Positions 1 through 60,478 are shown, numbered from the stretch's first letter. The stretch: 64,000 bases of DNA from Candidatus Doudnabacteria bacterium (GCA_041497195.1 JBGQGB010000001.1:213504-277503), one strand, 5' to 3'. The notes: generated by a model not told the origin, from the sequence alone. Program-made: numbers and translations.

Positions 1-19
1 CCCGCCCGCCTGACTCGTC

Positions 20-94
20 TGGTGACCTTGGTAGGAATCGAACCTACATCCGCGGCTTAGAAGGCCGCTGCTCTATCCATTGAGCTACAAGGCC
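20..94 (-). tRNA. tRNA-Arg (anticodon TCT), 75 nt including an encoded CCA
   Basis: The reverse complement folds as a cloverleaf: acceptor stem GGCCTTG/CAAGGTC, D arm GCTC-AATGGATA-GAGC, anticodon stem GCGGC/GCCGC with loop CTTCTAA, T arm GTAGG-TTCGATT-CCTAC, then discriminator A and CCA. Confidence 0.8.
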
Positions 95-111
95 GTCAGG
101 CGAGTCGGGCA

Positions 112-136
112 GGTATCCATTGAACTACGAGGGCTC
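112..136 (-). pseudogene. tRNA 5' fragment (acceptor plus D-arm, GCCCTCGTAGTTCAATGGATA) in tandem 17 nt upstream of tRNA-Arg(TCT)
   Basis: The sequence closely matches the 5' 21 nt of the tRNA-Arg(TCG) at 5214 (GCCCTCGTAGCTCAACGGATA) but lacks an anticodon arm and a 3' half. Confidence 0.3.
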
Positions 137-275
137 TTTTGACTGCTTGAAGTCTATCATTTTGTACCGCTCCCTTCAATCCACGACTCCAGTGAACAAA
201 TCCCAAGGCCTTGACCAACGAGGTTTTTTGGTCTATGATGAGCTGTCGTAATCATCCAAGGAGGATGTTGATTTT

Positions 276-725
276 ATGAAAAGGGTTCTTTTGGCGGTTA
301 TGGTAGTGATAGCCCTCGGAGTTGGCGGACTCCTGCGCCCCCAGCATATCTCAGTCACGAGCCTTCTCATCAGTGCCCTCATTGTGGTTTCGATTTTGGC
401 CGCGACCCTCGTGTTCATGCCAGTGACGAAATATATCGAGGTAGAAAAGCTGCTGGAACTGAGGCCGCCTAGTCTGGCTTTTTCACTCAACGGCTTGCGC
501 GGCGTTCCCGCGACCTTTCATTTCCGCCCAGGCACTGGCGAGCCCATCACTGGTAAACTCGTGGAGCGTCATAACTCCCGCGGCACTGTCGGCATCGAGG
601 TTGAAAAAAACGGCACGAAAATCATGGTCACAGTGCTTGTGGCCGACATATGCCGCCTTGGGGTCGAGGAATCAAATTGGCACAAAGCCAAAAGCCCGGC
701 CGAGGAGTACTCTGAAGCGAGATGA
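276..725 (+). CDS. hypothetical small membrane protein (149 aa, two N-terminal TM helices)
   Basis: A strong SD (AAGGAGGA) lies 8 nt upstream of the ATG. The N-terminus is hydrophobic. The stop overlaps the ORF-track ATG at 722. Confidence 0.5.
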   Translation: MKRVLLAVMVVIALGVGGLLRPQHISVTSLLISALIVVSILAATLVFMPVTKYIEVEKLLELRPPSLAFSLNGLRGVPATFHFRPGTGEPITGKLVERHNSRGTVGIEVEKNGTKIMVTVLVADICRLGVEESNWHKAKSPAEEYSEAR

Positions 726-3809: not shown

Positions 3810-4868
3810 TTAGTGGACTCGTTCCGGCTCAGTAGCCTTGCGGAAAAATAATGTCAATAAAAGTTTTCCCGATTCCTCCGAGGTTTTAAGCCGGTAGTCG
3901 ATCGCCTTGAGATCCCGAAGCAGCCGGATGAGGCGAGTAGTTGTAAATTTTTTGGCAAGCTTGAGATTGATCCAGACGCGCCCCGGTTTCCAGTCGAGAA
4001 TTTTCGCAATTTCCTCAGGGGAATTCTGCCCTTCCAGATCCTTCACCAAAAGCAGTGACCGGATTTGCGCGGCCAGGATGCCAACGATTTGGATTGGCTG
4101 CGATTTGACATCGCTGGCTTGGACGTCCTGAAACATTTGTTCCATAAGTAATATCGCCTCCTGCAACTGGCCGTTGGCGACCAGGTCAGTGAGACCAAAT
4201 ATCTCCCGGGAAATATTGCGAAACCCTAGCTTCTGGACGTCTTGCGGTCCGATTGTCTTGTCATCCAGCCGATAGAGGATAAGTTTTTCCAATTCCGTCT
4301 CCACTTGCCACATGTCGTAGTCCTCCCCCAGTCTCGACACTAGATCTGCCATTGCCGCAGGTTTGATCTCGTAGCCGTCTCTGGCAAGACGATTCTTAAT
4401 CCAAGAAGTGAGGTCGCTCCCAGAGGGAATCTGAAAATCTTTTGTTTCAGCGATTTTTTGCAACTGTTTGAAAAAACGCAAACGTTTATCAGTACCCTCT
4501 TGCTCTACAAACAACGCTTCTACAGTTTTGCTGAGTTTGGGCAGGACTTCGAGTAAATACTTCCCTGTTTTCGGGCAATCGTTGAGCTCATCCACAAAAT
4601 CCCGCAAAATCAAAAATTTCCGGTCTGCGAACAGGCTGCGACTCTCCAACAGCTCCTGCAAACGAATCCGCAATGATTCATCCGTAAACCCTTCAGAACC
4701 CGAAAGTTCCTCTATCACTCCCTGCGGGTATTTCTGGCGAAACGTTTCGCGCAAAATTTGCACTTCCCGCAAAAGGTCTAGCGAATCTTCACCATAAAAC
4801 AAATAAACCCCGCTGCCGGTATCTCCTCGTTTGGTTGCTGATTTTTTTTCTAGCCTAACTCTCTCCAT
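3810..4868 (-). CDS. holA: DNA polymerase III delta subunit
   Basis: N-terminal LFYGEDSLDL, SLFADRKFLILRD, and a C-terminal region (IFGLTDLVANG...ILAAQIRSLLLVK) typical of HolA domain III. Confidence 0.55.
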   Translation of the reverse strand: MERVRLEKKSATKRGDTGSGVYLFYGEDSLDLLREVQILRETFRQKYPQGVIEELSGSEGFTDESLRIRLQELLESRSLFADRKFLILRDFVDELNDCPKTGKYLLEVLPKLSKTVEALFVEQEGTDKRLRFFKQLQKIAETKDFQIPSGSDLTSWIKNRLARDGYEIKPAAMADLVSRLGEDYDMWQVETELEKLILYRLDDKTIGPQDVQKLGFRNISREIFGLTDLVANGQLQEAILLMEQMFQDVQASDVKSQPIQIVGILAAQIRSLLLVKDLEGQNSPEEIAKILDWKPGRVWINLKLAKKFTTTRLIRLLRDLKAIDYRLKTSEESGKLLLTLFFRKATEPERVH

Positions 4869-5129: not shown

Positions 5130-5213
5130 AGCTCCTCTATTATACCACTGCTGATTGAAAAAAATAAGCCTGTTCCCTATACTATTTACGCACGGGCTTC
5201 TGCCAATGCCTGT

Positions 5214-5285
5214 GCCCTCGTAGCTCAACGGATAGAGCACTGGTCTTCGGAACCAGTGATGTGGGTTCAATTCCTGCCGAGGGCA
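5214..5285 (+). tRNA. tRNA-Arg (anticodon TCG), CCA not encoded
   Basis: Acceptor stem GCCCTCG/CGAGGGC, D arm GCTC-AACGGATA-GAGC, anticodon stem CTGGT/ACCAG with loop CTTCGGA, and T arm GTGGG-TTCAATT-CCTGC with two G-U pairs. Confidence 0.7.
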
Positions 5286-5322
5286 ATGGCATTGGTGGAA
5301 CATCGATCCTCCAGTTTAGGCG

Positions 5323-5346
5323 GATCAAATCCCTCCGGGCGCACCA
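5323..5346 (+). repeat. tRNA 3'-end-like fragment (GATCAAATCCCTCCGGGCGCACCA) resembling the 3' end of tRNA-Lys at 6227-6302
   Basis: There is a 10/10 match to GGGCGCACCA, and with a 1-nt indel an ATCCCT match as well. It is in direct orientation, about 900 bp upstream of the intact tRNA-Lys. Confidence 0.4.
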
Positions 5347-5350
5347 ATAA

Positions 5351-5382
5351 AAAAACAGCCGATAGGGCTGTTTTTTTTTTTT
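5351..5382 (+). terminator. rho-independent terminator after tRNA-Arg(TCG)
   Basis: Stem AAACAGCC/GGCTGTTT with loop GATAG, followed by a 12-nt T run and preceded by an A run. Confidence 0.7.
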
Positions 5383-5482
5383 GCGTTCCTCAAAGTTGAC
5401 GAAGCTTAGAAAAAGTGTTAGTATCTTTTGTCAAGCTAAAACAACAGGCTTGCAATCCAACTAAAAGAGGAGGAACAAACTC

Positions 5483-6121
5483 ATGAGCCAAACCTGGCGA
5501 GAATGGCTTGCTGAAAGGCGAGCGGCGTCAAGTATGAGTGTTGAGGTAGTTCCACTCACAGACGTACCAGGCTGGGGCCTACAAGACGATGGCTCTTGCT
5601 ATCGCCGACCGGATAGAAAATTCTTTGAAATCGTTGGCATGCAAATCAGTGTCCCCAGACCAGAACAGCGCGAAGTTGTATCGTGGGGACAGCCTGCGAT
5701 CTGCGAGGTCGGCCAAGGAGCAGTAGTCTTGGTGGAAACCACGCTGGGCTTTCTGATTCAAGCTAAAGCCGAGCCAGGAAACGATGCTAAGGGACGGGTA
5801 CTTCTGGCCCCCACGCTCCAAGCAAGTCAATCCAACTTGGACGGCGCCCACGGAGGGCCTCGGCCGCCACGCGCTGACCTGCTGGATAATACGTTCCCTG
5901 CCTGGACCGAACTGCGGCAAGACGGCGGTCGGTTCTTCAACAAAGTCAACTGCTATGCAGCGATTTTTGTGGTCGGCGTTGGCAATGAACTTCAACTGCG
6001 CGAAGACGAGCGCTGGTTCACGCCGGCAGAACTGAACGAAGCCGTGCTCGCCGGAGAAGTCAACGAACACCTAACCCAGGTCTTCGCGATCTGGCACGCT
6101 CATAGCCACGGCAAAGGCTAA
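5483..6121 (+). CDS. single-domain NDP-hexose 2,3-dehydratase-like protein (Nudix-fold hexose dehydratase family), GC-rich
   Basis: WLAERRAA, VEVVPL..GW, FFEI.G, SWGQP and LIQAKAEPGN closely match motifs remembered from the N-terminal domain of TylX3/EvaA-type 2,3-dehydratases. A strong SD (AAAGAGGAGG) is present. GC is about 57% against about 45% in flanking DNA. Confidence 0.5.
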   Translation: MSQTWREWLAERRAASSMSVEVVPLTDVPGWGLQDDGSCYRRPDRKFFEIVGMQISVPRPEQREVVSWGQPAICEVGQGAVVLVETTLGFLIQAKAEPGNDAKGRVLLAPTLQASQSNLDGAHGGPRPPRADLLDNTFPAWTELRQDGGRFFNKVNCYAAIFVVGVGNELQLREDERWFTPAELNEAVLAGEVNEHLTQVFAIWHAHSHGKG

Positions 6122-6135
6122 GAAATCCAAGCGGC

Positions 6136-6181
6136 GGGGAATCGGTCTTCCGGTTCCTCGCCCAATTTTTTTATATTTGCT
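6136..6181 (+). terminator. rho-independent terminator after gene 5483-6121
   Basis: GC-rich hairpin GGCGGGGAATCGG-TCTT-CCGGTTCCTCGCC followed by TTTTTTT. Confidence 0.55.
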
Positions 6182-6206
6182 ATCTCAGCGAAAAATCTGA
6201 TAAAAT
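6177..6206 (+). promoter_or_regulatory. sigma70-type promoter for tRNA-Lys (-35 TTGCTA, 18-nt spacer, -10 TAAAAT)
   Basis: The hexamers are spaced for a transcription start about 14 nt upstream of the tRNA. Confidence 0.45.
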
Positions 6207-6226
6207 TTGAAGGCTCCTGATGTCGA

Positions 6227-6302
6227 GCGCCCATAGCTCAGTTGGTAGAGCAGTTGCCTCTTAAGCAAACGGTCGCAGGTTCGATCCCTGCTGGGCGCAC
6301 CA
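6227..6302 (+). tRNA. tRNA-Lys (anticodon CTT) with encoded CCA
   Basis: Acceptor stem GCGCCCA/TGGGCGC, D arm GCTC-AGTTGGTA-GAGC, anticodon loop CTCTTAA, T arm GCAGG-TTCGATC-CCTGC, then ACCA. Confidence 0.85.
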
Positions 6303-6327: not shown

Positions 6328-6981
6328 ATGAATCCAGAAATTGAAACTCGTTTCGAGAATACCCGGAAATCCCAAACTTTTCACAACCTAGTCAGCGCTT
6401 TTGATTTGGACAAAAAAATGGTTTTGGACATCGGTTGCTCCTACGGCGAATTTCTCAACAATTTCGGCAGTGGCAGCGTCGGGATCACGATTGCCAAGGA
6501 AGAAATCGAATACGGCAAACAAAGGGGCCTAGATGTCAGATATGGCAATATTGAATCTGATAATTTTATTTTACAGGAAAAATTTGACGTTATTTTCGCC
6601 AACAATCTATTGGAACATTTATACTCGCCTCATAACTTTCTCTGGAAAATCAAAACATATCTCAAGCCCAACGGCATGCTGATCCTCGGCGTTCCTTGCA
6701 TACCAAAAATTGTTTCGCTGCTGCGTACGAAAAAATTTCAAGGAAGCTTGGCCGGAGCCCATATCAATTTTTTTACTAGGGAGACTCTAGTAAAAACCGT
6801 ACAGAGGGCCGGCTGGAAACCGGCCACAACAAGAGGTTTCCATTTTGCCAGCAAAATATTAGATTGGCTGTTGACCCCCATATATCCTCACTTTTACGTA
6901 GTCGCGACAGTCGAGCAGAATTTTCAATATCCAGAAAAGAGACAGAAAGAACTGGCAGATAGATTAGCACCAACAAGCTAA
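6328..6981 (+). CDS. class I SAM-dependent methyltransferase
   Basis: VLDIGCSYGEF glycine-rich SAM motif, with an acidic residue after the beta-2 strand. Confidence 0.65.
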   Translation: MNPEIETRFENTRKSQTFHNLVSAFDLDKKMVLDIGCSYGEFLNNFGSGSVGITIAKEEIEYGKQRGLDVRYGNIESDNFILQEKFDVIFANNLLEHLYSPHNFLWKIKTYLKPNGMLILGVPCIPKIVSLLRTKKFQGSLAGAHINFFTRETLVKTVQRAGWKPATTRGFHFASKILDWLLTPIYPHFYVVATVEQNFQYPEKRQKELADRLAPTS

Positions 6982-7137
6982 AAACATAGAAAACTTATAG
7001 AGATAGATCGGGAGTAGATTAAGTATTTCTTGTCGCTACAATTTCCGGCCAGCTATTCGCTTCCTCTCCGTCAATAATTCCTAATCCTGCCCATAGGTCT
7101 CTATACTTTGCGAAGTATCTCGATCTACACCCGAACC

Positions 7138-7173
7138 ACAACAAATTCCCGCCTAAAAGCGGGAATTTGTTGT
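7138..7173. terminator. perfect 15-bp inverted repeat (ACAACAAATTCCCGC-CTAAAA-GCGGGAATTTGTTGT) between convergent genes
   Basis: It is a strong hairpin but has no U-tract on either strand, so terminator function is uncertain. Confidence 0.35.
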
Positions 7174-7188
7174 CAGTTCAAAAAAAGT

Positions 7189-7485
7189 TTATTTATACTC
7201 TGCAACTGGATTTTCGCGACCATTGACCCCTTGTTGTAATTTATAAGGCGGCTCCACATAACCCTGTCTTGATTTTAGCCATGTTTGGAACTCTTGATCA
7301 GTTTTCGCATCAATTGTGATAGCCGGCTGGGCAGTTTGCTGCGGGGGTGTCTCGAGCTCCCGGAAGTTAAGATAGAGATATTTATACGTAACTAAAATCT
7401 CAACAAGGATCGTGATGAGAAACAGAACCCACAATATAGTCTGCAAGCTTAAATGGAAGCGAAGATTTTTCGCGGAAATTTTCAT
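7189..7485 (-). CDS. small membrane protein, last gene of the pilMNO operon (98 aa, one TM)
   Basis: Shares an ATGA overlap with pilO and has a hydrophobic segment ILWVLFLITILVEILV. Confidence 0.4.
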   Translation of the reverse strand: MKISAKNLRFHLSLQTILWVLFLITILVEILVTYKYLYLNFRELETPPQQTAQPAITIDAKTDQEFQTWLKSRQGYVEPPYKLQQGVNGRENPVAEYK

Positions 7486-8102
7486 GGCTTTTTAATCAAA
7501 AAAACACCTTCGATGTTACTAGTGACCGTCCCGACATTGCCCAAAAGCTGATTTGGTCCCGCTTGCTCTTTGTCTGCCGTCATACTTAAGGAACTTATCT
7601 CACTCATAAAAGAAAGATTTTCTAAATTGACAAAAAAATCAATCAACTGGCGGTATGTTCCCCCGAGTTTCAAAAAATAATGAACTTCTTCAACATTTTT
7701 GAGACCTGGCACCACTGAAGGAAGCTTCTCTTGACTTGCTTTACTTCCAGGGCCAGCCTCGGCACTATCTACAATTGATAAAACTGCGGTAGGTCCACTT
7801 TTATCAATAGCACTTTCAACTCCTTCTACCAATCCTACGATCTCCTCGCGTTTGGGAAACATTTCGTTTAGACTTTGCTGATCGCTACCCAATTGTTTGA
7901 GCTGAATTGATAAATTTTTCAAACTTTCAATATCTGCCTGGATTTGCTGGAAATCACTCTGATTCTGCTTGATCGCTTCATCCGTGCTTTGAAAATTGCG
8001 CAACATCGGAAGGATGAAAAAAGTTACAACCAAAACCGCCCCAACAATAACCGCGATGACGCTGAGAATAATTTTAGTTTGAGAAGAAAAAGCTCTGAAC
8101 AT
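7482..8102 (-). CDS. pilO: type IV pilus assembly protein PilO-like
   Basis: Single N-terminal TM, coiled-coil region, position after pilM/pilN. The start is moved to the Met at 8100-8102, 1 nt after the pilN stop. Confidence 0.55.
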   Translation of the reverse strand: MFRAFSSQTKIILSVIAVIVGAVLVVTFFILPMLRNFQSTDEAIKQNQSDFQQIQADIESLKNLSIQLKQLGSDQQSLNEMFPKREEIVGLVEGVESAIDKSGPTAVLSIVDSAEAGPGSKASQEKLPSVVPGLKNVEEVHYFLKLGGTYRQLIDFFVNLENLSFMSEISSLSMTADKEQAGPNQLLGNVGTVTSNIEGVFLIKKP

Positions 8103-8103
8103 A

Positions 8104-8658
8104 TTAGTTGAGTATTTCTGGTCGAATATAAAATCGAAACTTCCAAACTGCATCTGTTCGCTTTTCGAGATTCAGCAGAGGAAAATTGACGTTGTTAAAA
8201 TAAGAAGAAGCCAAGAGGTTTTGCCTTAATTGTAAAACGGATTTTCTATCACTGGCACGGCCGCTTGCCTCAACCTTCAGGCTACTTCTACTAATAGTCA
8301 AACTATCGACAGTCAGCCCCGCGGGTAACAATCTGGCAAATTCGATCAAAACTGGAGATAGATTTTGATGTCTGGCGCTAAGGGTCCGAAAATTAGTCAA
8401 ATTTAGATTGAAGTCACCTGCGGCTTTTTGAATTCCCTGCTCTTGAAGCTTGTTAAAAGCAATTTGTTCGGTCTGAACTCGTTGTTGTGAAATCTTTAAT
8501 TCTTCCTGCAAAAAAGTCTGGGCAGCAAAAATCAAAACCGCCAAAATAAGAAAACTTAACCCCAACCAAAATCCAAAACTCCATAACTCTGTATGAATTA
8601 GTTGGAGTTTATACTCCTTTTGCTCGTCAGACGGAAGAAGATTGACAAATTTTTTCAT
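8104..8658 (-). CDS. pilN: type IV pilus assembly protein PilN-like
   Basis: 184 aa with a single TM (FGFWLGLSFLILAVLIFAA) followed by coiled coil. It lies immediately downstream of pilM. Confidence 0.6.
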   Translation of the reverse strand: MKKFVNLLPSDEQKEYKLQLIHTELWSFGFWLGLSFLILAVLIFAAQTFLQEELKISQQRVQTEQIAFNKLQEQGIQKAAGDFNLNLTNFRTLSARHQNLSPVLIEFARLLPAGLTVDSLTISRSSLKVEASGRASDRKSVLQLRQNLLASSYFNNVNFPLLNLEKRTDAVWKFRFYIRPEILN

Positions 8659-8667
8659 AAAATGTCC

Positions 8668-9795
8668 CTAATCAATTTCCCTGAGTCCCAAACCTATTGC
8701 AGTTGCAAAACTCAAAGAATCATCACGTGATAATGGCGGGGTTTGGCCTTTTGCCAAAACATTTGCCCAAGGATTTCCCAATTCGATTTTCAAATCTAGA
8801 AGTGAACGAAGAGGATGAGCATTGTCAGTTTGATGAGAAAGTTTTTGGTGCAAAAAAGACGGCAGATGCTTCAATTTACTTGATCCTCCACAAAGTACCA
8901 AGCGTGAAATTTTGCTGCTCCCGCTGGAGTGTTCTTCAAAAAAACGAATAGTATTTTTTATTTCTTCGATCAAGTTATTTAGCGGCGATCTCAAAGCTTG
9001 CTTCACCGTCCCATGCTCCGCTTCTTCATCAATTCCCACCTCGCGTTTCAGCCGCTCAGCGACTTCTCTATCTATCCCCAAAGATTTGGCAATGGCATCG
9101 GTAAAAACATCTCCGGCGATTGCAAAGGATGACGTAAATTGAAGCGTGCCGTGATCGCTAATGATTAGACTTGTACGGACTGTATCAATATCCACAATCA
9201 AAACTGCCTCTTGCGTTTTGGACATCAGGCTGCGAGCAGTCGCTTGGGATTCCACTTCCAAAGCAACTGGTTGAAGTCCTGCATCTTTCAAAACTTTGAC
9301 CAAACTATCTACATAATCTTTCGGAGCCGCGGTAATGAGTACCGTCATTTTCTTGCCCGAGGTCTGTGCCTCTCCGCCCAAGTCTAAACTAGGTAAAGTG
9401 GGCGAAAGAACGACCCAATCGAGATAAACCTGACTAATAGGAAGGGGTATGTAAGCTTCGGCTTCCCAAGGAACTGCCTCAACGGCCTCTGCCTCGGATA
9501 ATGCAGGCATTTGAATTACCCGGACAAATGATTTTGTCTCCGGTATCGAGGCGACCACTTGTTTTGTAGTCACTTTGCCAAATTTCGGCGATGCGATGGC
9601 TGACCTAATCGTTTTGACCAGAGCATTTGGATCCTGAATTTTGTCGCCCGAAAAAATCGCCTTTGACATTGTGTAATCTGAATAAGCCTGAACGTTCTTT
9701 TTTCCGTCTAGCCGATAAAACTGAATCAACTTTACGGAAATATCACTAATATCAAGCCCCAAAGGTGATTTGTGGTCGCTGAAAATATTAAGCAT
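8668..9795 (-). CDS. pilM: type IV pilus assembly protein PilM (actin-like ATPase fold)
   Basis: N-terminal GLDISDISVKLIQ, LVVDIDTVRTSLII and GGSSKLKHLPSFL motifs are typical of PilM/FtsA-like proteins. Confidence 0.8.
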   Translation of the reverse strand: MLNIFSDHKSPLGLDISDISVKLIQFYRLDGKKNVQAYSDYTMSKAIFSGDKIQDPNALVKTIRSAIASPKFGKVTTKQVVASIPETKSFVRVIQMPALSEAEAVEAVPWEAEAYIPLPISQVYLDWVVLSPTLPSLDLGGEAQTSGKKMTVLITAAPKDYVDSLVKVLKDAGLQPVALEVESQATARSLMSKTQEAVLIVDIDTVRTSLIISDHGTLQFTSSFAIAGDVFTDAIAKSLGIDREVAERLKREVGIDEEAEHGTVKQALRSPLNNLIEEIKNTIRFFEEHSSGSSKISRLVLCGGSSKLKHLPSFLHQKLSHQTDNAHPLRSLLDLKIELGNPWANVLAKGQTPPLSRDDSLSFATAIGLGLREID

Positions 9796-9905: not shown

Positions 9906-11267
9906 TCAATTTATTTCTCTCCAAGTACCTCGCTCAATTTTCCACGACCCACCAGGCCCACCAGTAAAATTAACACTAGCCAAACCAGTCTCATAAGTTA
10001 TTATTGAATTGTTTGACAAGGAAATCTGCCAGCCAGTAACTTCCCGAAGTTGGGCATTGTTCGCGACGGCCACGGTTCCGTTTGCCGCGTAAGCGATCAA
10101 AGCATCGGCGTTATTGGCGATTGAAAAAGCACTGCCACTAAATGAGGTCGTCAGCATCATTATATAACTACTCGGGCCGGCTTTTTGAAAAATTGCATCA
10201 TTGGAGACGTCGATTATTCCATCCGCAACGATGACCTCGCTACCGTTTCCATAACTCGGCGACAAAGTGATGATGGCGTTATTGGAAACTGAGATTTTTC
10301 CGTTTACCCAAATGGGGCCGGTCAAGGTCAATTCTGCTCCGTTTGAAAGCGTCAAATTTCCCGTTATTTTTTTTGGTCCGATAGTTGCTTGGGCGAAATT
10401 GCTCAAGGCATAATCTCCAATAATCGTCCCACCGCTTGTCGCCTGATTCTCCCAATCTGTGATTTCCTGATTAGAGATGGGTAAAGGAATGCTTTGTGGG
10501 TTAGGCTCGCCTGGATATGGAGTATTTTGCGATCCGCTGATTGTACAAGAAGTTTTTGTCGTATAAGAAGCGTTACCGCCGACCGTACAGTTACTAACTG
10601 AGTACATAAAAGCGCTTGCACCAACCGTGACATTGTCCATGGCGTAGCCATAGGCGTTGGCCCCGACAGCGACGTTAGTATCGATTTGATTGGCATGAGC
10701 GTTACCATCAATCTGCACACGATCAAAAATCCTACCGGTCGCACCGCTCGAATAAGCATCGCCGGTAATGTGGGCTCCGGCTGCACCATCAATGGTTCCA
10801 TCACTGTAAACACTGCCATTGATTAGAGAATTATTACTCATCACGAGTCCCCCCTGGCCAACTTGCACCCCATAATTAAAACTCACGTTCGTGGTGTCAA
10901 TACTCACCCGCACTTTTATCTGTTTCGTTACTTGCGGAGCGGCTTTGTTTGGAATATAACCTGTTGCAGTAATTTCTCGTAGACTTGAAGAAAGGTTGCT
11001 GATACTAGTATCAAAGACCCCGGCCCCTAGAATGGTTCCGGTTTCACCAGTATAACCACCTGCTGTTTGGTTCAGTTGCCAAACGGCTTTGTCGATAGCT
11101 GCTTCTGCCAATTGCAACGCTTGCTCTTTGGCCACCGCAATTCTTGTCGCGCGGACATTTAGAAAAACGTACGAAAGCAGAGCGGAAACCAAAGTCATAA
11201 CCACTACCAAAAAAATAATCGAAAGGATCATGATTTGACCAGACGAATATGATTTATTCATAGGCAT
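9906..11267 (-). CDS. pilus-associated secreted repeat protein (453 aa) with an N-terminal TM/pilin-like anchor and Gly/Asn/Ser/Thr-rich, beta-helix-like repeats
   Basis: Its start overlaps the stop of the pseudopilin gene by 1 nt. It has a hydrophobic N-terminus without the GFxxxE motif, and repeated (N/S)xxVGxN / GxAxxxG segments. Confidence 0.45.
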   Translation of the reverse strand: MPMNKSYSSGQIMILSIIFLVVVMTLVSALLSYVFLNVRATRIAVAKEQALQLAEAAIDKAVWQLNQTAGGYTGETGTILGAGVFDTSISNLSSSLREITATGYIPNKAAPQVTKQIKVRVSIDTTNVSFNYGVQVGQGGLVMSNNSLINGSVYSDGTIDGAAGAHITGDAYSSGATGRIFDRVQIDGNAHANQIDTNVAVGANAYGYAMDNVTVGASAFMYSVSNCTVGGNASYTTKTSCTISGSQNTPYPGEPNPQSIPLPISNQEITDWENQATSGGTIIGDYALSNFAQATIGPKKITGNLTLSNGAELTLTGPIWVNGKISVSNNAIITLSPSYGNGSEVIVADGIIDVSNDAIFQKAGPSSYIMMLTTSFSGSAFSIANNADALIAYAANGTVAVANNAQLREVTGWQISLSNNSIITYETGLASVNFTGGPGGSWKIERGTWREIN

Positions 11268-51533: not shown

Positions 51534-52559
51534 TCAAGGAATCATGGAAAATCCTGCAAGTGTCATCAGCAACAATGACTGAAAAACTGAACGGTTGCCG
51601 CCCCAGGCAAAGTCTATGAACAGTCCCGATTTCTCGCTGAATATAATCGCCAGGGAATCATACAAACCCCCTACGGACAGATATTCAACTCGACCAAAAA
51701 TTAAATCCATAAGCCCCCGGATCTTCATAGTCGTCATTAGATTGCTCTCTGGTAGATCTACGCCAATAAATTGCAGATACTTCCGATCCAGGTCATCAGG
51801 TGTTTGGTCTTGCCCGTCCAAACGCAGTCCTCGGTAAATCCCACCCTCGACCTTATAATCAAGGCGAGACAGGTTAGGGCCGCTCAAATCATAATCCGCG
51901 ATCGCACCGCCCTCTCCGATTATATGGAACTTGCCGACGCTGTAGTCGCGCGGCTCGACAATGCTCGCTTTGATCCCGTTCCGGAATATTATTTGCCGTT
52001 CGGCAATTTTCCCGTGCGAATAGGTATTTTTTATTTTGGAAATATAATTTACCCCGGTTAGCATTTTCAAAGTTGCCAGGGCATGATAACGATAGCCGCT
52101 GTGAATCAAGCTTATTTCTTTAATCTTGCCGATCTGGCCTTGGTCAATAAGTTTGCGCGCCAGCACAAAAGGGGGCAAAGTGATTGAGTCTTCCGAAACG
52201 CCAACGGATCTAAATTTTTTAAAATATCTGGCACAGCGGATGTCATGCAAACTCAAAACAGGCGTATCAATCAGTAATCGCACGTGCTGTGTATTATAAA
52301 CGGCCAATTTCTTGAGCACATCGGGAACCTGTTCCAAAGTTACTGCCACCATAATCAAATCCAGGGATCGAAAATCGATTCTCGAGAAATCATTGATCGT
52401 CTGGATTTGCATTTTCCGGTTGAAAAGCGAAATATCTTTAATTGACCGCGAATAAACAGCAAGCAATTCAAATTCATCTTGCAAGCAGTAGATTGCCGGC
52501 AAAATAGTATTTTGGACCCGCTGACCTGAACCAATCACCAGAACGTTTTTCTTAGGCAT
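51534..52559 (-). CDS. Gfo/Idh/MocA-like oxidoreductase (divergent)
   Basis: NVLVIGSGQRVQNTILPAI N-terminal Rossmann-like motif. The start is set at MPKKN, 8 nt overlapping the upstream stop. Confidence 0.4.
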   Translation of the reverse strand: MPKKNVLVIGSGQRVQNTILPAIYCLQDEFELLAVYSRSIKDISLFNRKMQIQTINDFSRIDFRSLDLIMVAVTLEQVPDVLKKLAVYNTQHVRLLIDTPVLSLHDIRCARYFKKFRSVGVSEDSITLPPFVLARKLIDQGQIGKIKEISLIHSGYRYHALATLKMLTGVNYISKIKNTYSHGKIAERQIIFRNGIKASIVEPRDYSVGKFHIIGEGGAIADYDLSGPNLSRLDYKVEGGIYRGLRLDGQDQTPDDLDRKYLQFIGVDLPESNLMTTMKIRGLMDLIFGRVEYLSVGGLYDSLAIIFSEKSGLFIDFAWGGNRSVFQSLLLMTLAGFSMIP

Positions 52560-53991
52560 TTGATTTGATATGATCAGCCAGTCTGATCGCCAAGGCAATA
52601 ATAGTTGCCGTGGGATGTGCATACCCAGCAGTCGGAAATAGCGAACTGCCTGCGACGTATAAATTATTAAGCGTATGGACTTTGCAGTTTTGGTCCACGA
52701 CAGACGTTTTCGGCTCAGTTCCCATGCGCGTCGTACCCATGTGATGCGAAGCGTCAGTTTTGATTGGCCATTCGGCCGCAGTCTCATCCAACAAGGGACT
52801 CTCCAAATCCCCTATTTTCATTCGGTTTAATTCCGCCTTGAGGGTCTCATGCAAGATGCGCATGGTTTTTTTCTCCAAATTGCTTACTGACCAAAAAATT
52901 TCGGCCCGCGGCCTGCCGAACGCGTCCCGAGTCTGACCCAATGCAATCCGGTTCTCCGGATTCGGCTCCTGCTCCATGAAGTTCCGGAGTGAAATCGAGA
53001 CCGGCTTTGGATTGACAATTTTCCGGATGAATTTGGCAAAAATTGAAGATCGTCCAAAATTCGGCTGTAGCTGAACATAGCTGTTCAGAACTTGTTCGTG
53101 TTTCTGGATCTGTTCGCTCAAGCCCAGCCCAATGAAGTACTGTCCGAATTGGTCGTAGCCGTCCCAAAAACCGCTCAAATCCAGATTCTGATCGGATAAC
53201 CTAATCGTTCCCACTTTTCCTTTAGGATGGTCCATATAGTATCGGCCAACCTGGTCAGATTCGTTTCCGATGCCAGATAGCAAAAGCAAACGAGCATTTT
53301 CAATCCCGCCGCAAGCCAAAATGAAGACTTTCGCATTAACACGGAAAGCATTACCGGCGAAAGTTTTCACCGCCACGTTCTCCACTCCGGAATTAGCTGC
53401 CCCAGCCGGCAAATTCAAAGCAACGGCATTGAAATAGACTTGGATATTTGACGATTGTTCAAAACGAGTATAAAAAACTTTTGCAAAATTGATTTTGTCC
53501 TGGTCCATGCGCCGCACGATGGTCGGGTTTACAGTACTCCGGGCAAATAAATTTTCATGGGGCCCAAAGGCTTCTGGGCTTGGAGCCTGGACCAATTTCG
53601 CAGCCCGTTCGTAATACGCGTCCAAATCCTCCCGGCCTATCGGCCAGCCCGAATGCGGCACCCAAGGCCGTGCAGCAAAATCAATCTGGTCATGGAGTTT
53701 CCAAATGCCGGCCCAGACCTGCGTCGTCCCACCAAAGCCTTGGGTCCGGGATTTTGGCGAGATTGGCAAACCAGTTGTTCCAAACTCATACAGTGCATCA
53801 AGTTCGGTCTGATTTTCCAGCGCGCCGCTTTCCAAAACGCAGATGCTTTTTTGTTGACTTTCCAGTTCGAGCGCCAGCGGGATACCTGCCGCGCCCGTGC
53901 CGATGATACAAATATCAGCCTCGATAATCGTATCATCTGCAATGGTCCGCGCGTCAATGAACATATTCCAAGCCTTTCCAAACTTCCGCAA
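52552..53991 (-). CDS. GMC-family FAD-dependent oxidoreductase
   Basis: DICIIGTGAAGIPLALEL (FAD GxGxxG) and C-terminal HHMGTTRMG (GMC active-site His region). Confidence 0.75.
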   Translation of the reverse strand: MRKFGKAWNMFIDARTIADDTIIEADICIIGTGAAGIPLALELESQQKSICVLESGALENQTELDALYEFGTTGLPISPKSRTQGFGGTTQVWAGIWKLHDQIDFAARPWVPHSGWPIGREDLDAYYERAAKLVQAPSPEAFGPHENLFARSTVNPTIVRRMDQDKINFAKVFYTRFEQSSNIQVYFNAVALNLPAGAANSGVENVAVKTFAGNAFRVNAKVFILACGGIENARLLLLSGIGNESDQVGRYYMDHPKGKVGTIRLSDQNLDLSGFWDGYDQFGQYFIGLGLSEQIQKHEQVLNSYVQLQPNFGRSSIFAKFIRKIVNPKPVSISLRNFMEQEPNPENRIALGQTRDAFGRPRAEIFWSVSNLEKKTMRILHETLKAELNRMKIGDLESPLLDETAAEWPIKTDASHHMGTTRMGTEPKTSVVDQNCKVHTLNNLYVAGSSLFPTAGYAHPTATIIALAIRLADHIKSNA

Positions 53992-55012
53992 AGGTAATAT
54001 CTCTCATGCAGCGGGAAAAATCCTCGCGCAAAGCATTCGGGCAATTCATCATGTAGCATTTCGGATGTACTGGCTCCTGGCACTCGCCCACAATCACAGC
54101 TTTTGCTCCCTGCGGGCGCTGGCTCGTGCTACAGCACGGGCCCATTAAATCCACCACCGGCACAGCCAAAGCGTCAGCGATATACAAGGGTCCAGTATCA
54201 GCGGAAACAAACACTGAAAAAATGCTTACTAAAGCTGCCAATTGACTTAATGAAAACAAACCTGCTGTATTGAAAAACATGCCGCGGTCCACACTTAAGG
54301 CCAGTTTCTCCAATTTCTCCCGCTCCGGTAGCGAACCGACTCCAATCACGCAAAATCCAGACTCATTTAATCGGTTCACCAAGTGCGCAAAGTTCTCAAT
54401 TCCCCATTCTTTGAAATCCTTTCCCGCAGTGACGGAGATTCCCGCTAACTTTTTGCCTTGTAATCCGTACTGGTTTAAAAATTGGTCGGCTACCACGCGA
54501 TCTTGCGCATCAAAATAAACCTCTCGCCGCCGGACCGGATTTGTGACCCCCAATGCTTTCGCCATCTCCAAATAATGATCCTGGGCCGCGGTGACGAAAT
54601 CATAGTTAAACTTCTTGGTCAAAAAAAACGAATAAAGTTTTTCCTTTTTTGACATTTTGTCATGCACGGTCCCGAGCAAATTCGGAATTCCCGCGACAAC
54701 GCACCTTTTCAAGATTTCCACGCTGGGCATCAAAATCAATACGTGCGAATATTGTTTCTGTCTGAGTATCCGGATACTTACTGTTCTGGGCAAAATTTCT
54801 CCGACCGCATCATTGCCTTTCAGAACTTCTTCAGCAAAAGTACCGGCTACTACATCAACCGGTTCGGCAAAATTGTTTTTCAGCGTTCGAAACAAAGGCG
54901 TCGTGCAGACCAAATCCCCGATTTTTCCCTCTTGTACGACTAAAACCCGGCGCCTGCCGGTAGACGATTTCAAAAATAAGCGAGCCGTGAGCGTTGTGAG
55001 GAAATCAAACAT
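53954..55012 (-). CDS. glycosyltransferase family 9 (ADP-heptose-dependent heptosyltransferase)
   Basis: VLVVQEGKIGDLVCTTPLFRTLK N-terminal motif. GT-B, 352 aa. Confidence 0.7.
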   Translation of the reverse strand: MFDFLTTLTARLFLKSSTGRRRVLVVQEGKIGDLVCTTPLFRTLKNNFAEPVDVVAGTFAEEVLKGNDAVGEILPRTVSIRILRQKQYSHVLILMPSVEILKRCVVAGIPNLLGTVHDKMSKKEKLYSFFLTKKFNYDFVTAAQDHYLEMAKALGVTNPVRRREVYFDAQDRVVADQFLNQYGLQGKKLAGISVTAGKDFKEWGIENFAHLVNRLNESGFCVIGVGSLPEREKLEKLALSVDRGMFFNTAGLFSLSQLAALVSIFSVFVSADTGPLYIADALAVPVVDLMGPCCSTSQRPQGAKAVIVGECQEPVHPKCYMMNCPNALREDFSRCMRDITFAEVWKGLEYVH

Positions 55013-55964
55013 TCAAGTAATTTTTGACATAATCATTGATGCCGTCTTCCAATTCGAAAAAGGCTTCCGAATAACCGGCTCTCCGCAAACTGCTGACATC
55101 AGCTTGAGTGAAATACTGATACTTTTGCCGAATCTCCCGGGGCATCTCGAAAAATTCTAGATTTGGCTCTCGGTTGAGCGAGGCGAAAAGTGCTTTACCC
55201 AGATCCAGAAAACTCCTAGCCTTTCCCGTCCCGACATTAAATATCCCGCTGTGTTGCGGATTATCCAAAAAAAACATAATCACCTTCAGCACATCCTTGG
55301 CGTAAACGAAATCTCGCTTCTCGCCCCCATCCGCCAATCCGGGCTGGGATGACTTAAATAAACGCATCTTCCCGGTTTGTTTTATTTGTTCATAGCCCTG
55401 GCAGATAAGCGAGGCCATCTTACCTTTATGACCCTCATTCGGCCCATAGACATTGAAAAATTTCAAGCCGACCCATTGACCGGGTTTTTGCCTGCTATCC
55501 AAGACCATTTCGTCAAACCAATATTTCGAATAACCATACAGATTCAGCGGGGTGAACCGCCGTGCCTGATCGCTGAACCCTTGACTGCCGTCTCCATACG
55601 TTGCTGCCGAAGACCCGTAAATAAAGCGCGAGCCGGCTCGAACGCAATAATCAAACAAAACTTTTGAGTACTGGGTGTTGTTCTCGCGGAAATATTGCTC
55701 ATCCTGCACGGTAGTATCCGTACAGGCGCCCAAATGGATGATGGTTTCGATTCCCGTAAGCTCGGGGAGTATAGTTAAAAATTCGTTCTTGCCAAAATAG
55801 CGCTCGTATTTCAAATTTTGCAAATGAGTTTTTTTCCGCTCATAGTCAAGCTGATCCACGACATAAAGCGACTGGAGGCCACGCAGGTTCAGCGCCTGGA
55901 CCAAATTTGAGCCGATGAACCCGGCGGCTCCAGTGACGACGATTTTGTTACTTTGCTCCGACAT
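55005..55964 (-). CDS. hldD: ADP-L-glycero-D-manno-heptose 6-epimerase
   Basis: IVVTGAAGFIGSN, YGSSAATYG, NLYGYSKYWFDE, FNVYGPNEGHKG, KRDFVY, FNVGTG, YFTQAD, LRRAGY. Block-by-block match to E. coli HldD. Confidence 0.9.
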   Translation of the reverse strand: MSEQSNKIVVTGAAGFIGSNLVQALNLRGLQSLYVVDQLDYERKKTHLQNLKYERYFGKNEFLTILPELTGIETIIHLGACTDTTVQDEQYFRENNTQYSKVLFDYCVRAGSRFIYGSSAATYGDGSQGFSDQARRFTPLNLYGYSKYWFDEMVLDSRQKPGQWVGLKFFNVYGPNEGHKGKMASLICQGYEQIKQTGKMRLFKSSQPGLADGGEKRDFVYAKDVLKVIMFFLDNPQHSGIFNVGTGKARSFLDLGKALFASLNREPNLEFFEMPREIRQKYQYFTQADVSSLRRAGYSEAFFELEDGINDYVKNYLNV

Positions 55965-56958
55965 TGAAAATCTTACTTACTGCGCTTTTCAGGTCGCGGG
56001 CATAAAAATTCGGCTCCAGTTTTAGATCTCTAGGCATGGGGGGACCCAGCTTAATCGTGTTTGCATTGACCTCACGGCCCATAACAATATCCGCAGGTCC
56101 ATCTCCAATCACCCAACTATGATTGAGGTTCAAATGAAAATCTTTTACTGCCTGCATGATGAGTACTGTCCCTGGTTTCCGGCAATCGCAGTGATCAGCG
56201 GGTTTGTGTGGACAAATATAAATGGCATCGAGCCGGATACCCCGCATGCGGAGTTCCCGCTTCATGTGTTGGTGAAGTTTTATGGTGTGGCTTTTCGGAA
56301 AATAGCCGCGACCGATGCCAGATTGATTGGTAATCACAATGATTTTATACTCCGATTTACTGAGTCTCTTTAGGGCCTGGGGAGTGCCGGGTACGAATTC
56401 GAAGTCTTCGATTTTGTGAATGTATCCCCGTTTATTTAAATTAATCGTTCCGTCTCTATCAAGGAAGACAGCTCGAGGCGAGGAGCTGGCATTTGCGTTT
56501 TTGAATTTTTTTATCAAATTCGAAGTTGAGTAGCCTAGCTTCAATTTTATTACCGCGACGCGGCCACCGTATCTCTCAACGGTAGCGCGTTCAATGCAAT
56601 TTTTTCCCCAGTCCGACCCGTTTGCGTGAATCGCCGGGCGTACAACAGACAAAATTATTTTTGGGTTGATCTCGTCAAACAAACACACATAATCAACGCA
56701 CTCCAAAGCCGCAAGCAAAACCGCACGGGCGTTCTGGTCAAGAATCGGCCGCTGCGACCCTTTATAGCTTCTGACTGACTTATCGCTATTCAAAAGAACC
56801 GCGAGCCGATCGCCTTGGGCCCTGGCTTGGCGCAACAACTCCAAATGGCCGGGGTGCAGAATATCAAAACTCCCGTTCACGGTGACCAGCTTTTGTTTCT
56901 GGTTTTTCATTTGACGGGAGATGGCGGCTAACTGCTTTCTGGATCTAAACTTTTTCAT
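55948..56958 (-). CDS. hldC: fusion of D-beta-D-heptose-1-phosphate adenylyltransferase (HldE domain II/HldC) and D,D-heptose-1,7-bisphosphate phosphatase (GmhB)
   Basis: N-half: LVTVNGSFDILHPGHLELLRQARAQGDRLAVLLNSD..GYSTSNLIKK (cytidylyltransferase-like). C-half: LDRDGTIN..., ITNQSGIGRGYF and CDCRKP (HAD/GmhB). The start is set at MKKFRSRKQ. Confidence 0.75.
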   Translation of the reverse strand: MKKFRSRKQLAAISRQMKNQKQKLVTVNGSFDILHPGHLELLRQARAQGDRLAVLLNSDKSVRSYKGSQRPILDQNARAVLLAALECVDYVCLFDEINPKIILSVVRPAIHANGSDWGKNCIERATVERYGGRVAVIKLKLGYSTSNLIKKFKNANASSSPRAVFLDRDGTINLNKRGYIHKIEDFEFVPGTPQALKRLSKSEYKIIVITNQSGIGRGYFPKSHTIKLHQHMKRELRMRGIRLDAIYICPHKPADHCDCRKPGTVLIMQAVKDFHLNLNHSWVIGDGPADIVMGREVNANTIKLGPPMPRDLKLEPNFYARDLKSAVSKIFNVGAK

Positions 56959-58264: not shown

Positions 58265-58277
58265 AGGTTTTTAAATT

Positions 58278-59414: not shown

Positions 59415-59419
59415 GATTC

Positions 59420-60478
59420 TTAATTCAAGTTTAATTGAAACAAAAGCTCCTGACCAATGGCAAGGGGAGTGAATTTTTGAGTGTAAAGCTCGTAGGTATT
59501 CTGCGCCAATGTCTCACGAAGAGCCTGATCGTCGCGAAGGGACAATATCGCTTCTGCCAATGCGCGCGGATCTGCTGGCGCGCAAGTTATCAGGGTTCCG
59601 CTCGGAAATGCCTCCCTGATTGCCGGGGTGTCGGCCGTGATGACTGGCTTGCGGCATGCAACGGCTTCAAAAATTTTATTCGGTACGACTAGCGCGGTTT
59701 TTTTATTCTTTCCAAAAACCCCCAAACAGAGATCAGCCTGGTTCAGAGCGTCAGCTAGCCCGTGATAATCAGTCTCCGGAAAAAACACTATATTGTGAAG
59801 TTGTAATTGTTGGGCCTGGACTTTCAAACTTCGATATTGACTATTAAACCGGGTAATCAGATGAAATTCTATGTCTGGCCTTGATTGGAGCAATGCCGCG
59901 GCCTGCAAAATTGTCTCTGCCCCGTGGAAAGGAACAATATGTCCGTGCCAGTGCACGACAAATTTGGAAAGGCTTGTTGTCGGCGAAGGTCGTGCCCGAG
60001 GAAAAAAAATTTCATTATCTGCTCCCACCAGAACCCGAATAAATTTTTGGGGGGAAAGGTGGTATTGGGTGACGAAATAATCTATCTGTACTTGGGTATC
60101 CAGAAGCACCCGGTAAGCCAAGTTGCAAGCGGATTTTTCCAAACATCGCAGGTACCAGCTCCGCCACCCGTTCCGCGGCGACCGAGCCCGATCCTCAATC
60201 TCAGTCAAATAGAGAGACACAAACGCATCTAGAACCACTGGTTTTTTAGTCAGCAACCGGGCAAACCACATCAATGAATAGCCGGCCATGCCGACCAGCA
60301 AAACATCGTAGGAATTTTTCAGCCTGCGATGCTGCCGATACAAACCCCAATATTTTGCGAAGCCGCGGCGGCGGGTTTGACATTCGACGATATGGACGCC
60401 ATTTGCCGTCAAGCCTTTCTTCAGCACCACAATGCGCGGGTAATCGGGAATATAATTTCCAAAAAAACAGATGGTCAT
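59420..60478 (-). CDS. glycosyltransferase family 4-like
   Basis: GT-B group 1-like, 352 aa. Confidence 0.6.
   Translation of the reverse strand: MTICFFGNYIPDYPRIVVLKKGLTANGVHIVECQTRRRGFAKYWGLYRQHRRLKNSYDVLLVGMAGYSLMWFARLLTKKPVVLDAFVSLYLTEIEDRARSPRNGWRSWYLRCLEKSACNLAYRVLLDTQVQIDYFVTQYHLSPQKFIRVLVGADNEIFFPRARPSPTTSLSKFVVHWHGHIVPFHGAETILQAAALLQSRPDIEFHLITRFNSQYRSLKVQAQQLQLHNIVFFPETDYHGLADALNQADLCLGVFGKNKKTALVVPNKIFEAVACRKPVITADTPAIREAFPSGTLITCAPADPRALAEAILSLRDDQALRETLAQNTYELYTQKFTPLAIGQELLFQLNLN

Follow-up and report, generated by a model that had tools for sequence, protein, structure and literature searches.

Probable lineage-specific insertion of an orphan single-domain 2,3-dehydratase-family gene between two tRNA genes of a Candidatus Doudnabacteria bacterium, beside the putative relic of a split tRNA-Arg gene

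This analysis concerns a stretch of 64,000 nucleotides (nt) from the genome of a Candidatus Doudnabacteria bacterium (GCA_041497195.1, JBGQGB010000001.1:213504-277503), hereafter the window, and within it an open reading frame (ORF) of 212 amino acids (aa) that matches the sugar dehydratase family PF03559 and lies between the genes for tRNA-Arg(TCG) and tRNA-Lys(CTT). We favour, with a probability of about 0.7, a joint explanation in which a cassette carrying this gene entered the spacer of a tRNA gene pair that is normally adjacent, the gene itself is an orphan member of a single-domain dehydratase family branch, and the tRNA-like fragment found next to it is the relic of an older tRNA-Arg gene that had been split by another one. 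A first-pass annotation of the same DNA had seen here a decayed or minimal integrated element, delimited by a direct repeat of the tRNA-Lys 3' end and accompanied by an excisionase-type gene. The anatomy on which that proposal was built, namely two tRNAs, the 212-aa ORF with a Shine-Dalgarno sequence of its own, a GC-rich terminator and the lack of an integrase, was present as described. The PF03559 gene was the sole ORF between the two tRNAs, where we found no integrase or recombinase, and the flanking genes belong to the conserved core; the repeat search revealed no convincing terminal direct or inverted repeats around the ORF cassette, with the exception of the tRNA-related ones discussed below. 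Overall, the 5155-6302 region reads as three separate predicted promoter-to-terminator units (Table 1).

The evidence for an insertion came from gene order. Nine public contigs encode an identical 212-aa protein and, with at least 99.9% nt identity among them, represent one strain that is uninformative for synteny. Relatives were reached through homologues of holA, the best of which was 55% identical to that of the window (42-55% across the syntenic loci compared, which are designated here by L numbers). The order conserved in these genomes comprises PilM/N/O, a 98-aa gene, sometimes a methyltransferase gene, tRNA-Lys(CTT), tRNA-Arg(TCG), a gene for a small HTH_17 protein, holA, a cyclase gene, 6PGD and G6PD. 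The spacer from tRNA-Arg to tRNA-Lys measured 940 nt in the window versus 4-483 nt in 11 distinct related Doudnabacteria loci (4 nt in L033, 22 in L017, 46 in L016, 83 in L010, 106 in L036, 186 in L020, 206 in L018, 237 in L013, L022 and L023, 392 in L012 with a run of N counted, and 483 in L025), and none of these 11 spacers contained the PF03559 ORF. Moreover, a leader of about 105-135 nt, GGGGNCCCC-A5...T5GGGGAGAGCGGGA...GCGAAAATCG...CACGCGA, is common to L013, L018, L020 and L025, where it precedes tRNA-Lys. It matched no known family, as Rfam detected only tRNAs in these four loci, and the window lacks it, the segment 6122-6226 failing to align with the leader of the relatives. Since four relatives share this leader and all 11 loci have spacers devoid of the gene, the state of the window is, by parsimony, the derived one.

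The PF03559 gene would then be a lineage-specific insertion between normally adjacent tRNAs, a conclusion supported by synteny. A single-gene cassette of about 0.8 kb (approximately 5347-6170), comprising promoter, Shine-Dalgarno sequence, ORF and terminator, would have been inserted at the former leader site in the lineage of the window only, and our best guess for its mode of entry is either illegitimate recombination or homologous recombination in a rearrangement-prone locus. If so, the tRNA spacers of the streamlined genomes of the candidate phyla radiation (CPR) can take up single cargo genes without an integrase signature. We considered it unlikely, at somewhat over one chance in ten, that the ORF is instead a retained native gene, ancestral in the sub-lineage of the window or older and lost from the relatives sampled. 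Its GC content at third codon positions (GC3) and its synonymous codon usage do fall inside the native range, the nearest relatives sampled are distant (holA identity no higher than 55%), and the spacer is hypervariable, which makes losses plausible. Against a native origin stand the 11 ORF-less loci distributed across the clade, the leader present in four relatives and missing from the window, which marks the window state as derived, the nearest protein homologue, just 57% identical, and the location of homologues elsewhere, in sugar clusters and not between these tRNAs.

The locus has also been rearranged in other ways. When L017, L018, L020 and L021 were compared with the window, L010, L012, L016, L025 and L036, the genomes fell into two groups, with the tRNA-Arg/tRNA-Lys pair running in the same direction as HTH_17-holA in one and diverging from it in the other, so that either the pair or its neighbours must have been inverted. 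In L021, L030 and L032 tRNA-Arg was present and no tRNA-Lys could be detected at the site.

The second element of the joint explanation is the tRNA-like fragment between tRNA-Arg and the ORF, within which lies the 24-mer that had been taken for a copy of the tRNA-Lys 3' end. We conclude that this fragment is most probably what decay has left of the 3' part of an earlier tRNA-Arg(TCG) gene and was not made by the insertion of the ORF. The intact tRNA-Arg gene just upstream is clamped by an inverted repeat, whose 23-nt pairing (5198-5220 with 5278-5300) is 83% complementary and folds into a 13-bp stem under the tRNA-Arg cloverleaf. The duplex formed by leader and trailer reached -23.2 kcal/mol versus -13.0 ± 2.7 kcal/mol for shuffled sequences, that of the window tRNA-Lys being only -4.8 kcal/mol. 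The left arm of this repeat is, in the window, a shortened form of CCTGCCCGCCAATGCCTG, which occurs at full length in L015, before the same type of tRNA-Arg. The right arm is ATGGCATTGGTGGA, and the motif ATGGCAYTGG is also found 3' of tRNA-Arg in L012, L013, L022 and L023. The region around the promoter-like site of the tRNA-Arg unit (attataccact...ttgaaaaaa...tatact) was found again in L012 and L025.

Immediately 3' of the right arm, the relic opens with TCG, the Arg anticodon, and continues with a T-arm-like segment, an acceptor strand and CCA. Its best local match was the tRNA-Arg of L020 (24 of 28 nt). Over 41 nt it shared 27-29 identities with the tRNA-Arg(TCG) 3' halves of 10 of the 13 relatives, compared with 25 of 41 for the window's own tRNA-Lys and likewise 25 of 41 for the window's own tRNA-Arg. 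What we regard as decisive is that the ORF-less loci L012, L013, L022 and L023 display the same arrangement, i.e. tRNA-Arg, then ATGGCACTGG... / ATGGCACTGGCAAGGCGGG, then a tRNA-Arg 3' half starting at TCG, which indicates that the insertion of the ORF did not create the relic. The missing left half of the older gene is illustrated by L015, where a complete outer 5' half, GCGCCCG...GTGTGGCT (positions 1-33, ending in GGCT), is followed by CCTGCCCGCCAATGCCTG and then by an inner tRNA-Arg that shares its first 16 nt (GCCCTCGTAGCTCAA) with the tRNA-Arg of the window; the acceptor strand of the window relic, CGGGCGC, pairs with the GCGCCCG of the L015 outer gene. The sequence of events suggested by these comparisons is that an older tRNA-Arg(TCG) gene would have been split at 33|34 by a complete, repeat-clamped tRNA-Arg entering its anticodon loop, after which the incoming tRNA-Arg would have taken over the function and the split resident gene would have decayed.

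Further observations were made on relics of this kind. In L012 the same tRNA-Arg relic sequence stands on either side of a run of N (5351-5469), whereas the near-identical L013, L022 and L023 have one copy; either the relic has been duplicated in tandem or the second copy is an artefact of scaffolding. L012 (5590-5720) and L015 (65-225), read in the tRNA sense, share a leader of about 110 nt before tRNA-Arg, made up of a tRNA-Arg 5' fragment (GCGCCC..TAGCT) and, after it, two hairpins, TCCRCC...GGCGGA and GAAGC...GCGAAG. Hairpins resembling the first, TCCGCC/GGCGGA, interrupt tRNA fragments in L017, L030, L033 and L036; in the window relic they make up the "anticodon arm".

The resemblance of the relic to tRNA-Lys is nevertheless real. 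The 10-mer GGGCGCACCA occurs in the window only at 5337-5346 and at the end of tRNA-Lys (6293-6302), with 0.11 occurrences expected by chance, and ATCCCT precedes both copies; beyond this, the relic tail is only 72% identical to tRNA-Lys over 25 ungapped nt. The 24-mer was thus rightly perceived as tRNA-Lys-like, and its interpretation as an attachment (att) site fails on the presence of the relic in the ORF-less L012, L013, L022 and L023. One alternative gives the 10-mer a role in the arrival of the gene: the ORF cassette and the present tRNA-Lys would have come in as one segment through acceptor/CCA microhomology (...CCCT-C-GGGCGCACCA), the 3' end of a donor tRNA-Lys having recombined with the resident tRNA-Arg relic, and the repeat would be a recombination junction and not an integrase att site. 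The identical 3'-terminal 10-mers with ATCCCT at both ends of the segment would fit this scenario, as would the lack of the usual tRNA-Lys leader and the acceptor stem of the window tRNA-Lys, GCGCCCA, which differs from the GGGTCGG type of the syntenic L012, L013, L023 and L025. However, acceptor stems of tRNA-Lys vary freely among the relatives (GCCCTGT, GGGCCAT, GCCCCCA and others), the methyltransferase gene 3' of tRNA-Lys is syntenic with that of L012 (71% identical), no donor is known, and little weight attaches to the identity of two tRNA 3' ends over 10 nt when 4 of these belong to the ACCA common to both; we put its chances at around one in ten, a shade below those of a retained native gene.

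The composition of the gene and the identity of its HTH neighbour had been the other clues to a mobile element. With a GC content of 0.568, the ORF was the GC-richest of the 60 ORFs in the window (mean 0.462, standard deviation 0.037, z = 2.9). The excess resides in codon positions 1 and 2 (0.681 and 0.455); GC3 was 0.568 versus a window mean of 0.50 (z = 1.1), the likelihood score for synonymous codons (z = -1.3) was inside the range of the window, and Gly, Ala, Arg and Pro together make up 32% of the protein. We then made the same comparison in seven other genomes with a single-domain homologue, where the genes around it have an average GC content of 35-64%, and in 7 out of 7 loci the homologue was the GC-richest or second GC-richest gene locally, by 7-12 points. 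Given the excess at the first two codon positions and its recurrence in all seven homologous loci, we did not accept GC content as a sign of horizontal transfer: the anomaly appears to come with the protein family and would not betray a recent transfer.

As for the HTH_17 gene, a 69-aa orthologue lies directly upstream of holA in L010-L013, and the gene adjoins holA in all the relatives checked. Its product was 85% (L010) and 73% (L012) identical to that of the window, as compared to 55% and 51% for holA. These data point to a strongly conserved core neighbour of holA, and the proposed role as excisionase of an island has to be abandoned. In those relatives in which both genes and the site are visible, HTH_17 adjoins the rearrangement-prone tRNA site.

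Integration into the 3' end of a tRNA gene leaves a partial copy downstream of the intact gene. At the window locus the partial copy is found upstream, 956 nt before the 3' end of tRNA-Lys. A minimal or decayed element integrated site-specifically into the tRNA-Lys 3' end, with the 24-nt copies as attL/attR, the excisionase left and the integrase lost, could draw on the exact 10-mer and its ATCCCT, on the absence of the gene from the same site in relatives and on the highest GC content of the window, but is very improbable because the copy lies on the wrong side of tRNA-Lys, the repeat belongs to a 44-nt relic that opens with the Arg anticodon and whose alignment with tRNA-Arg is no worse than with tRNA-Lys, four ORF-less relatives have equivalent relics after tRNA-Arg, HTH_17 is a conserved partner of holA, and GC3 and codon usage are ordinary, the GC excess appearing intrinsic to the family. 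What survives of the integrated cargo element is thus an inserted gene, as supported by synteny; site-specific integration does not survive, with the copy on the wrong side, no att site and no excisionase. The locus resembles tRNA-targeting genomic islands of the tyrosine-integrase type in having a foreign gene beside tRNAs and a partial copy like a tRNA 3' end nearby, and differs from them in having no integrase, an Arg-like copy that lies on the wrong side and is present without the gene, and an HTH protein that is part of the core. For annotation this is a caution, since a tRNA-like fragment, an HTH gene and a high GC content together mimicked the scar of an island and comparison with relatives suggested another cause for each of these clues.

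The third element is the protein. The ORF product produced a single match to PF03559, covering profile positions 5-190 of 203, and scored 102.7 bits (E = 2.4e-29), the curated threshold being 25; no NCBIfam model matched the ORF. Among solved structures, the sole sequence match was EvaA, the thymidine diphosphate (dTDP)-4-keto-6-deoxyglucose 2,3-dehydratase of Amycolatopsis orientalis (4J7G/4J7H), which belongs to the same PF03559 family together with TylX3, OleV and SpnO; the protein aligned to both EvaA domains (41-229 and 264-446). An AlphaFold2 model based on 46 homologues reached a predicted local distance difference test (pLDDT) value of 95.4, and Foldseek retrieved EvaA (4j7g, E = 1e-11, TMq 0.67-0.72), followed by homodimeric Nudix hydrolases of nucleoside diphosphate (NDP) sugars. 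We are confident in predicting from this model a half-EvaA, Nudix-like fold. Residue E97, within QAKAEPGN, aligns with EvaA E139 and was invariant in the 46 homologues. In EvaA, pocket A uses E139, which is essential, together with E190, whereas pocket B survives as a vestige from a gene duplication (PMC8987622).

An exhaustive search collected 949 relatives, the best-scoring of which formed dozens of 50%-identity clusters of single-domain proteins of 200-230 aa, followed by two-domain proteins of 410-500 aa. The first-pass assignment to PF03559 as a single domain is thus borne out by the profile search, the EvaA alignment and the fold match, and its view that a single domain is unusual is contradicted by these dozens of clusters, which make the single-domain form an established, uncharacterised subfamily. 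The window protein and EvaA are alike in their Nudix-like fold, in the invariant glutamate of the EPGN motif and in that most homologues are found beside dTDP-sugar genes. They differ in that EvaA has two tandem domains (about 450-480 aa), whereas the window protein has one and joins the QAKxEPGN motif of the EvaA N-domain with a DGGRF motif like that of the C-domain, and in that the window gene lies outside any sugar or antibiotic cluster. The next-best structural matches, NDP-sugar hydrolases of the Nudix type such as the E. coli GDP-mannose hydrolase YffH (3O61) and ADP-ribose pyrophosphatases, measure about 180-200 aa. Homodimeric enzymes of this type bind nucleotide-sugars across the dimer interface. 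Their identity to the window protein is only 10-17%, the family signature of the latter is that of the dehydratases, and a Pfam search, the Nudix box itself not having been inspected, gave no NUDIX-family match. We infer a putative homodimeric NDP-4-keto-6-deoxyhexose 2,3-dehydratase. The single-domain branch probably resembles the form that preceded the gene duplication behind EvaA, and this uncharacterised branch of the 2,3-dehydratase family is a candidate for a minimal homodimeric enzyme.

The genomic context of the homologues was consistent with sugar metabolism: in 6 of 7 loci they adjoined RmlB-, RmlC- or RmlD-like, NTP-transferase, DegT or FdtA-type genes, and one, in a Patescibacteria contig, stood alone. 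The window gene is an orphan between tRNAs, with no pathway partner nearby. A search of viral contigs for relatives of the ORF returned only three distant matches (27-32% identity), and hence no sign of a phage-borne gene. Single-domain PF03559 genes were also seen near tRNAs elsewhere, at 116 nt from a tRNA-Leu (L042, 6734-6818), 42 nt from a tRNA-Glu (L043, 6669-6743) and about 800 nt from a Glu-Gln-Lys cluster (L166, 5413-5666). L042 and L166 are related loci, and this proximity is suggestive at most.

Several observations weigh against the joint explanation. As to the insertion, no relative exceeds 55% holA identity and hence there is no true empty-site allele, which means that the boundaries of the insertion and its direction (gain here versus loss elsewhere) rest on parsimony. 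Closer relatives were sought through the methyltransferase; the best was 75% identical, and the two contigs inspected had unrelated contexts. As to the relic, the margin in favour of Arg over Lys is modest (27-29 versus 25 of 41), with the tRNA-Lys of one relative reaching 28; Rfam found nothing in 5301-5360, even when start-anchored, the relic being too decayed; and the exact GGGCGCACCA match is left as a coincidence of the similar acceptor stems GCGCCCG and GCGCCCA. As to the protein, the second catalytic residue of EvaA, E190, aligns with Q146, an acidic residue being offered only by the neighbouring D147 (which at least 90% of the sequences conserve and which matches the EEGGRF motif of the EvaA C-domain). 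Finally, no rml genes were found in the window region scanned (52-64 kb), which holds heptose and glycosyltransferase genes. The minus-strand cluster at 52552-63535 looks like an ADP-heptose-type glycan pathway, with genes for a GT9 heptosyltransferase and four GT4-type glycosyltransferases alongside those for a GMC oxidoreductase, an epimerase and two fusion proteins (cytidylyltransferase-HAD and PfkB kinase-cupin).

While the PF03559 gene in itself represents a modest novelty, the analysis incidentally brought to our notice a more unusual phenomenon, tRNA genes nested within other tRNA genes. At the left end of the window, an inner tRNA-Arg(TCT) clamped by a 19-nt inverted repeat sits in the D-loop of an older tRNA-Arg(TCT). 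The outer 3' part falls beyond the left edge of the window, and the nest was read through L001 (about 4440-4660) as outer 5' part GCCCTCGTAGTTCAATGGATA, left arm CCTGCCCGACTCGCCTGAC, inner tRNA, right arm GACGAGTCAGGCGGGCGGG and outer 3' part GAACACTGGCC...CCGGGGGTACCA. In L010, L016 and L020 a tRNA-Lys lies within the D-arm of an outer tRNA-Lys, the outer anticodon loop of L020 (CTCTTAA) being still readable, and L019 is a triple nest. In total, the nested genes observed were repeat-clamped tRNA-Lys, tRNA-Arg(TCG) and tRNA-Arg(TCT), located at the D-loop or the anticodon loop, and inner and outer genes always shared the anticodon. When the arms and the inner gene were removed in silico, ARAGORN recognised a tRNA-Arg(tct) in the window nest as read through L001, in L018 and in the middle layer of L019. 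Because excision restores a valid tRNA, the insertions are seamless and devoid of target duplication in these three cases, which do not include the decayed 5303-5346 relic.

The clamps fall into the families CCTGCCCGACTCGCCTGAC, ACCTGCCCGCCANTGCC and CCCCGTTAGGCA, and the pairing of their arms is preserved, with compensatory differences between L010 and L020. A scan of about 36 tRNA genes revealed strong leader-trailer duplexes (-23 to -38 kcal/mol) in 6, and the fold of the window tRNA-Arg(TCT) nest, as read through L001, makes it a seventh clamped case. The outer copies showed damage, such as an anticodon loop of 9 nt in the window nest, a T in place of C56 in L018 and missing halves elsewhere (the 5' half at 5213). 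Their sequences indicate that they are relics and not working split tRNAs; a function of the outer halves as split tRNA was judged unlikely in view of these damaging mutations. Among the tRNA-Arg(TCG) genes, the invader was of GCCCTCG type and the resident gene of GCGCCCG type in the window and in L015, and in L012 a GCCCCCA type invaded a resident of GCCCTCG type. The invasions of the GCGCCCG and GCCCTCG types would be independent events at the same nucleotide position, 33|34. Viral contigs gave at least 120 matches to the repeat arm TGGCAGGCGGGGCAGG and 21 to GAGTCAGGCGGGCGGG, which were treated as chance: no tRNA gene was found within 150-200 nt of the match in the viral loci inspected, and the GAGTCAGGCGGGCGGG matches were in contigs of 51-73% GC.

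To account for these nests we tentatively propose, granting it slightly less than even odds, a previously undescribed selfish insertion of Doudnabacteria, in which a complete tRNA gene with a GC-rich inverted-repeat clamp of 13-19 bp would invade a tRNA gene of the same anticodon and replace its function. Entry would take place at the D-loop or anticodon loop without target duplication, the split gene would decay, and successive rounds would generate Russian-doll nests and replacement chains. On the same proposal the window would hold two instances, at 1-134 and 5198-5346, and the supposed att repeat would be debris of one of them. If mobile, nested tRNAs would represent a new strategy by which a selfish element does no harm, since it supplies a spare of the gene that it destroys. 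We came across no account of such nests in CPR bacteria in the literature searched; given its limited coverage, this is weak evidence of novelty.

The proposal, if true, would provide a bacterial counterpart of disrupted tRNA genes, the discussion of which has so far centred on archaea. According to Fujishima 2009 and 2010 (cited in PMC10714607) and Sugahara 2012 (PMC3293823), archaeal tRNA genes can be disrupted by mobile bulge-helix-bulge introns at non-canonical positions or exist as split and tri-split tRNAs. Archaeal disrupted tRNAs and the nests in the lineage of the window have in common a seamless interruption at the D-loop or anticodon loop, GC-rich complementary sequences that join the halves, and 5' and 3' tRNA fragments beside mobile DNA. 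Unlike the archaeal cases, the nests occur in a bacterial host, the insert is a complete tRNA of the same anticodon, and the interrupted outer genes are decayed, the intact copy being the insert itself.

A second parallel is offered by phage T4, in which a cluster of tRNA genes contains SegB, a homing endonuclease of the free-standing GIY-YIG kind (PMC2330249). Small GIY-YIG ORFs of 86 and 78 aa were detected between a truncated and an intact copy of the same tRNA, tRNA-Lys in L025 (4196-4456, minus strand) and tRNA-His in L021 (about 9280-9516, plus strand), with Pfam E-values of 3e-17 and 4e-16, respectively; in contrast to the T4 cluster, the window locus has no GIY-YIG gene. The truncated tRNA-His of L021 contains an "empty" CCTGCCCGCCA...GCGGGCGGG hairpin in its D-loop, and a further GIY-YIG gene lies near the cyclase gene in L013. 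The nested insertions might have been driven by the free-standing GIY-YIG nucleases of the relatives' loci, an association of these ORFs with the repeat-clamped tRNA cassettes that we advance only as a hypothesis. Candidate routes of insertion are homing by double-strand-break repair, hairpin-guided single-strand transposition and reverse splicing at the RNA level.

Table 1 Features of the window locus and positions of nested tRNA genes in the window and related loci
Locus	Feature	Coordinates	Strand	Basis or remark
Window	Outer tRNA-Arg(TCT) of nest 1-134, 5' part	134-114	-	
Window	Left arm of nest 1-134	113-95	-	
Window	Inner tRNA-Arg(TCT) of nest 1-134	94-20	-	
Window	Right arm of nest 1-134	19-1	-	
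Window	holA	3810-4868	-	Upstream of tRNA-Arg
Window	HTH_17 small DNA-binding protein gene, 70 aa	4917-5129	-	PF12728, E = 1e-12
Window	Promoter-like site TTGAAA-17-TATACT of tRNA-Arg unit	5155-5183	+	Consensus scan
Window	Left arm of inverted repeat clamping tRNA-Arg, shortened	5198-5212	+	Repeat search, fold
Window	tRNA-Arg(TCG), intact inner gene	5213-5286	+	ARAGORN; Rfam tRNA, 68.4 bits
Window	Right arm of inverted repeat	5287-5300	+	Repeat search, fold
Window	Putative relic, 3' part (anticodon TCG to CCA) of older tRNA-Arg(TCG), 44 nt	5303-5346	+	Contains the 24-mer 5323-5346
Window	Intrinsic terminator ending tRNA-Arg unit	5349-5385	+	12-pair stem (5349-5377), then T-run
Window	Promoter-like site TTGACG-17-TG-TAGTAT of PF03559 ORF	5396-5424	+	Consensus scan
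Window	Shine-Dalgarno sequence GAGGAGG, 9 nt 5' of ATG	5467-5473	+	Sequence
Window	PF03559 ORF, 212 aa, single domain (predicted half-EvaA, Nudix fold)	5483-6121	+	Pfam
Window	GC-rich intrinsic terminator of PF03559 ORF	6133-6172	+	13 pairs (9 GC; 6133-6162), then T-run
Window	Promoter-like site for tRNA-Lys	6177-6206	+	Consensus scan
Window	tRNA-Lys(CTT), intact, without flanking inverted repeat	6227-6302	+	ARAGORN, Rfam
Window	Class I S-adenosylmethionine methyltransferase gene, native context outside the insertion	6328-6981	+	Pfam
L010	tRNA nest	5400-5660		
L015	tRNA nest	1-240		
L016	tRNA nest	4480-4610		
L018	tRNA nest	10830-11000		
L019	tRNA nest	6960-7190		
L020	tRNA nest	4270-4440		

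Two neighbours of the nested loci deserve mention. In the window, the tRNA-Arg(TCT) nest adjoins an ORF of 149 aa (276-725, plus strand) without any Pfam match, which is the second GC-richest of the window (0.549, z = 2.4). In L010, genes for Archease and RtcB, an RNA ligase activator and the RNA ligase itself, occupy 7001-8862 directly downstream of holA, by the nested locus, an arrangement that is not found in the window and that, as a clue related to splicing, is only a hint.

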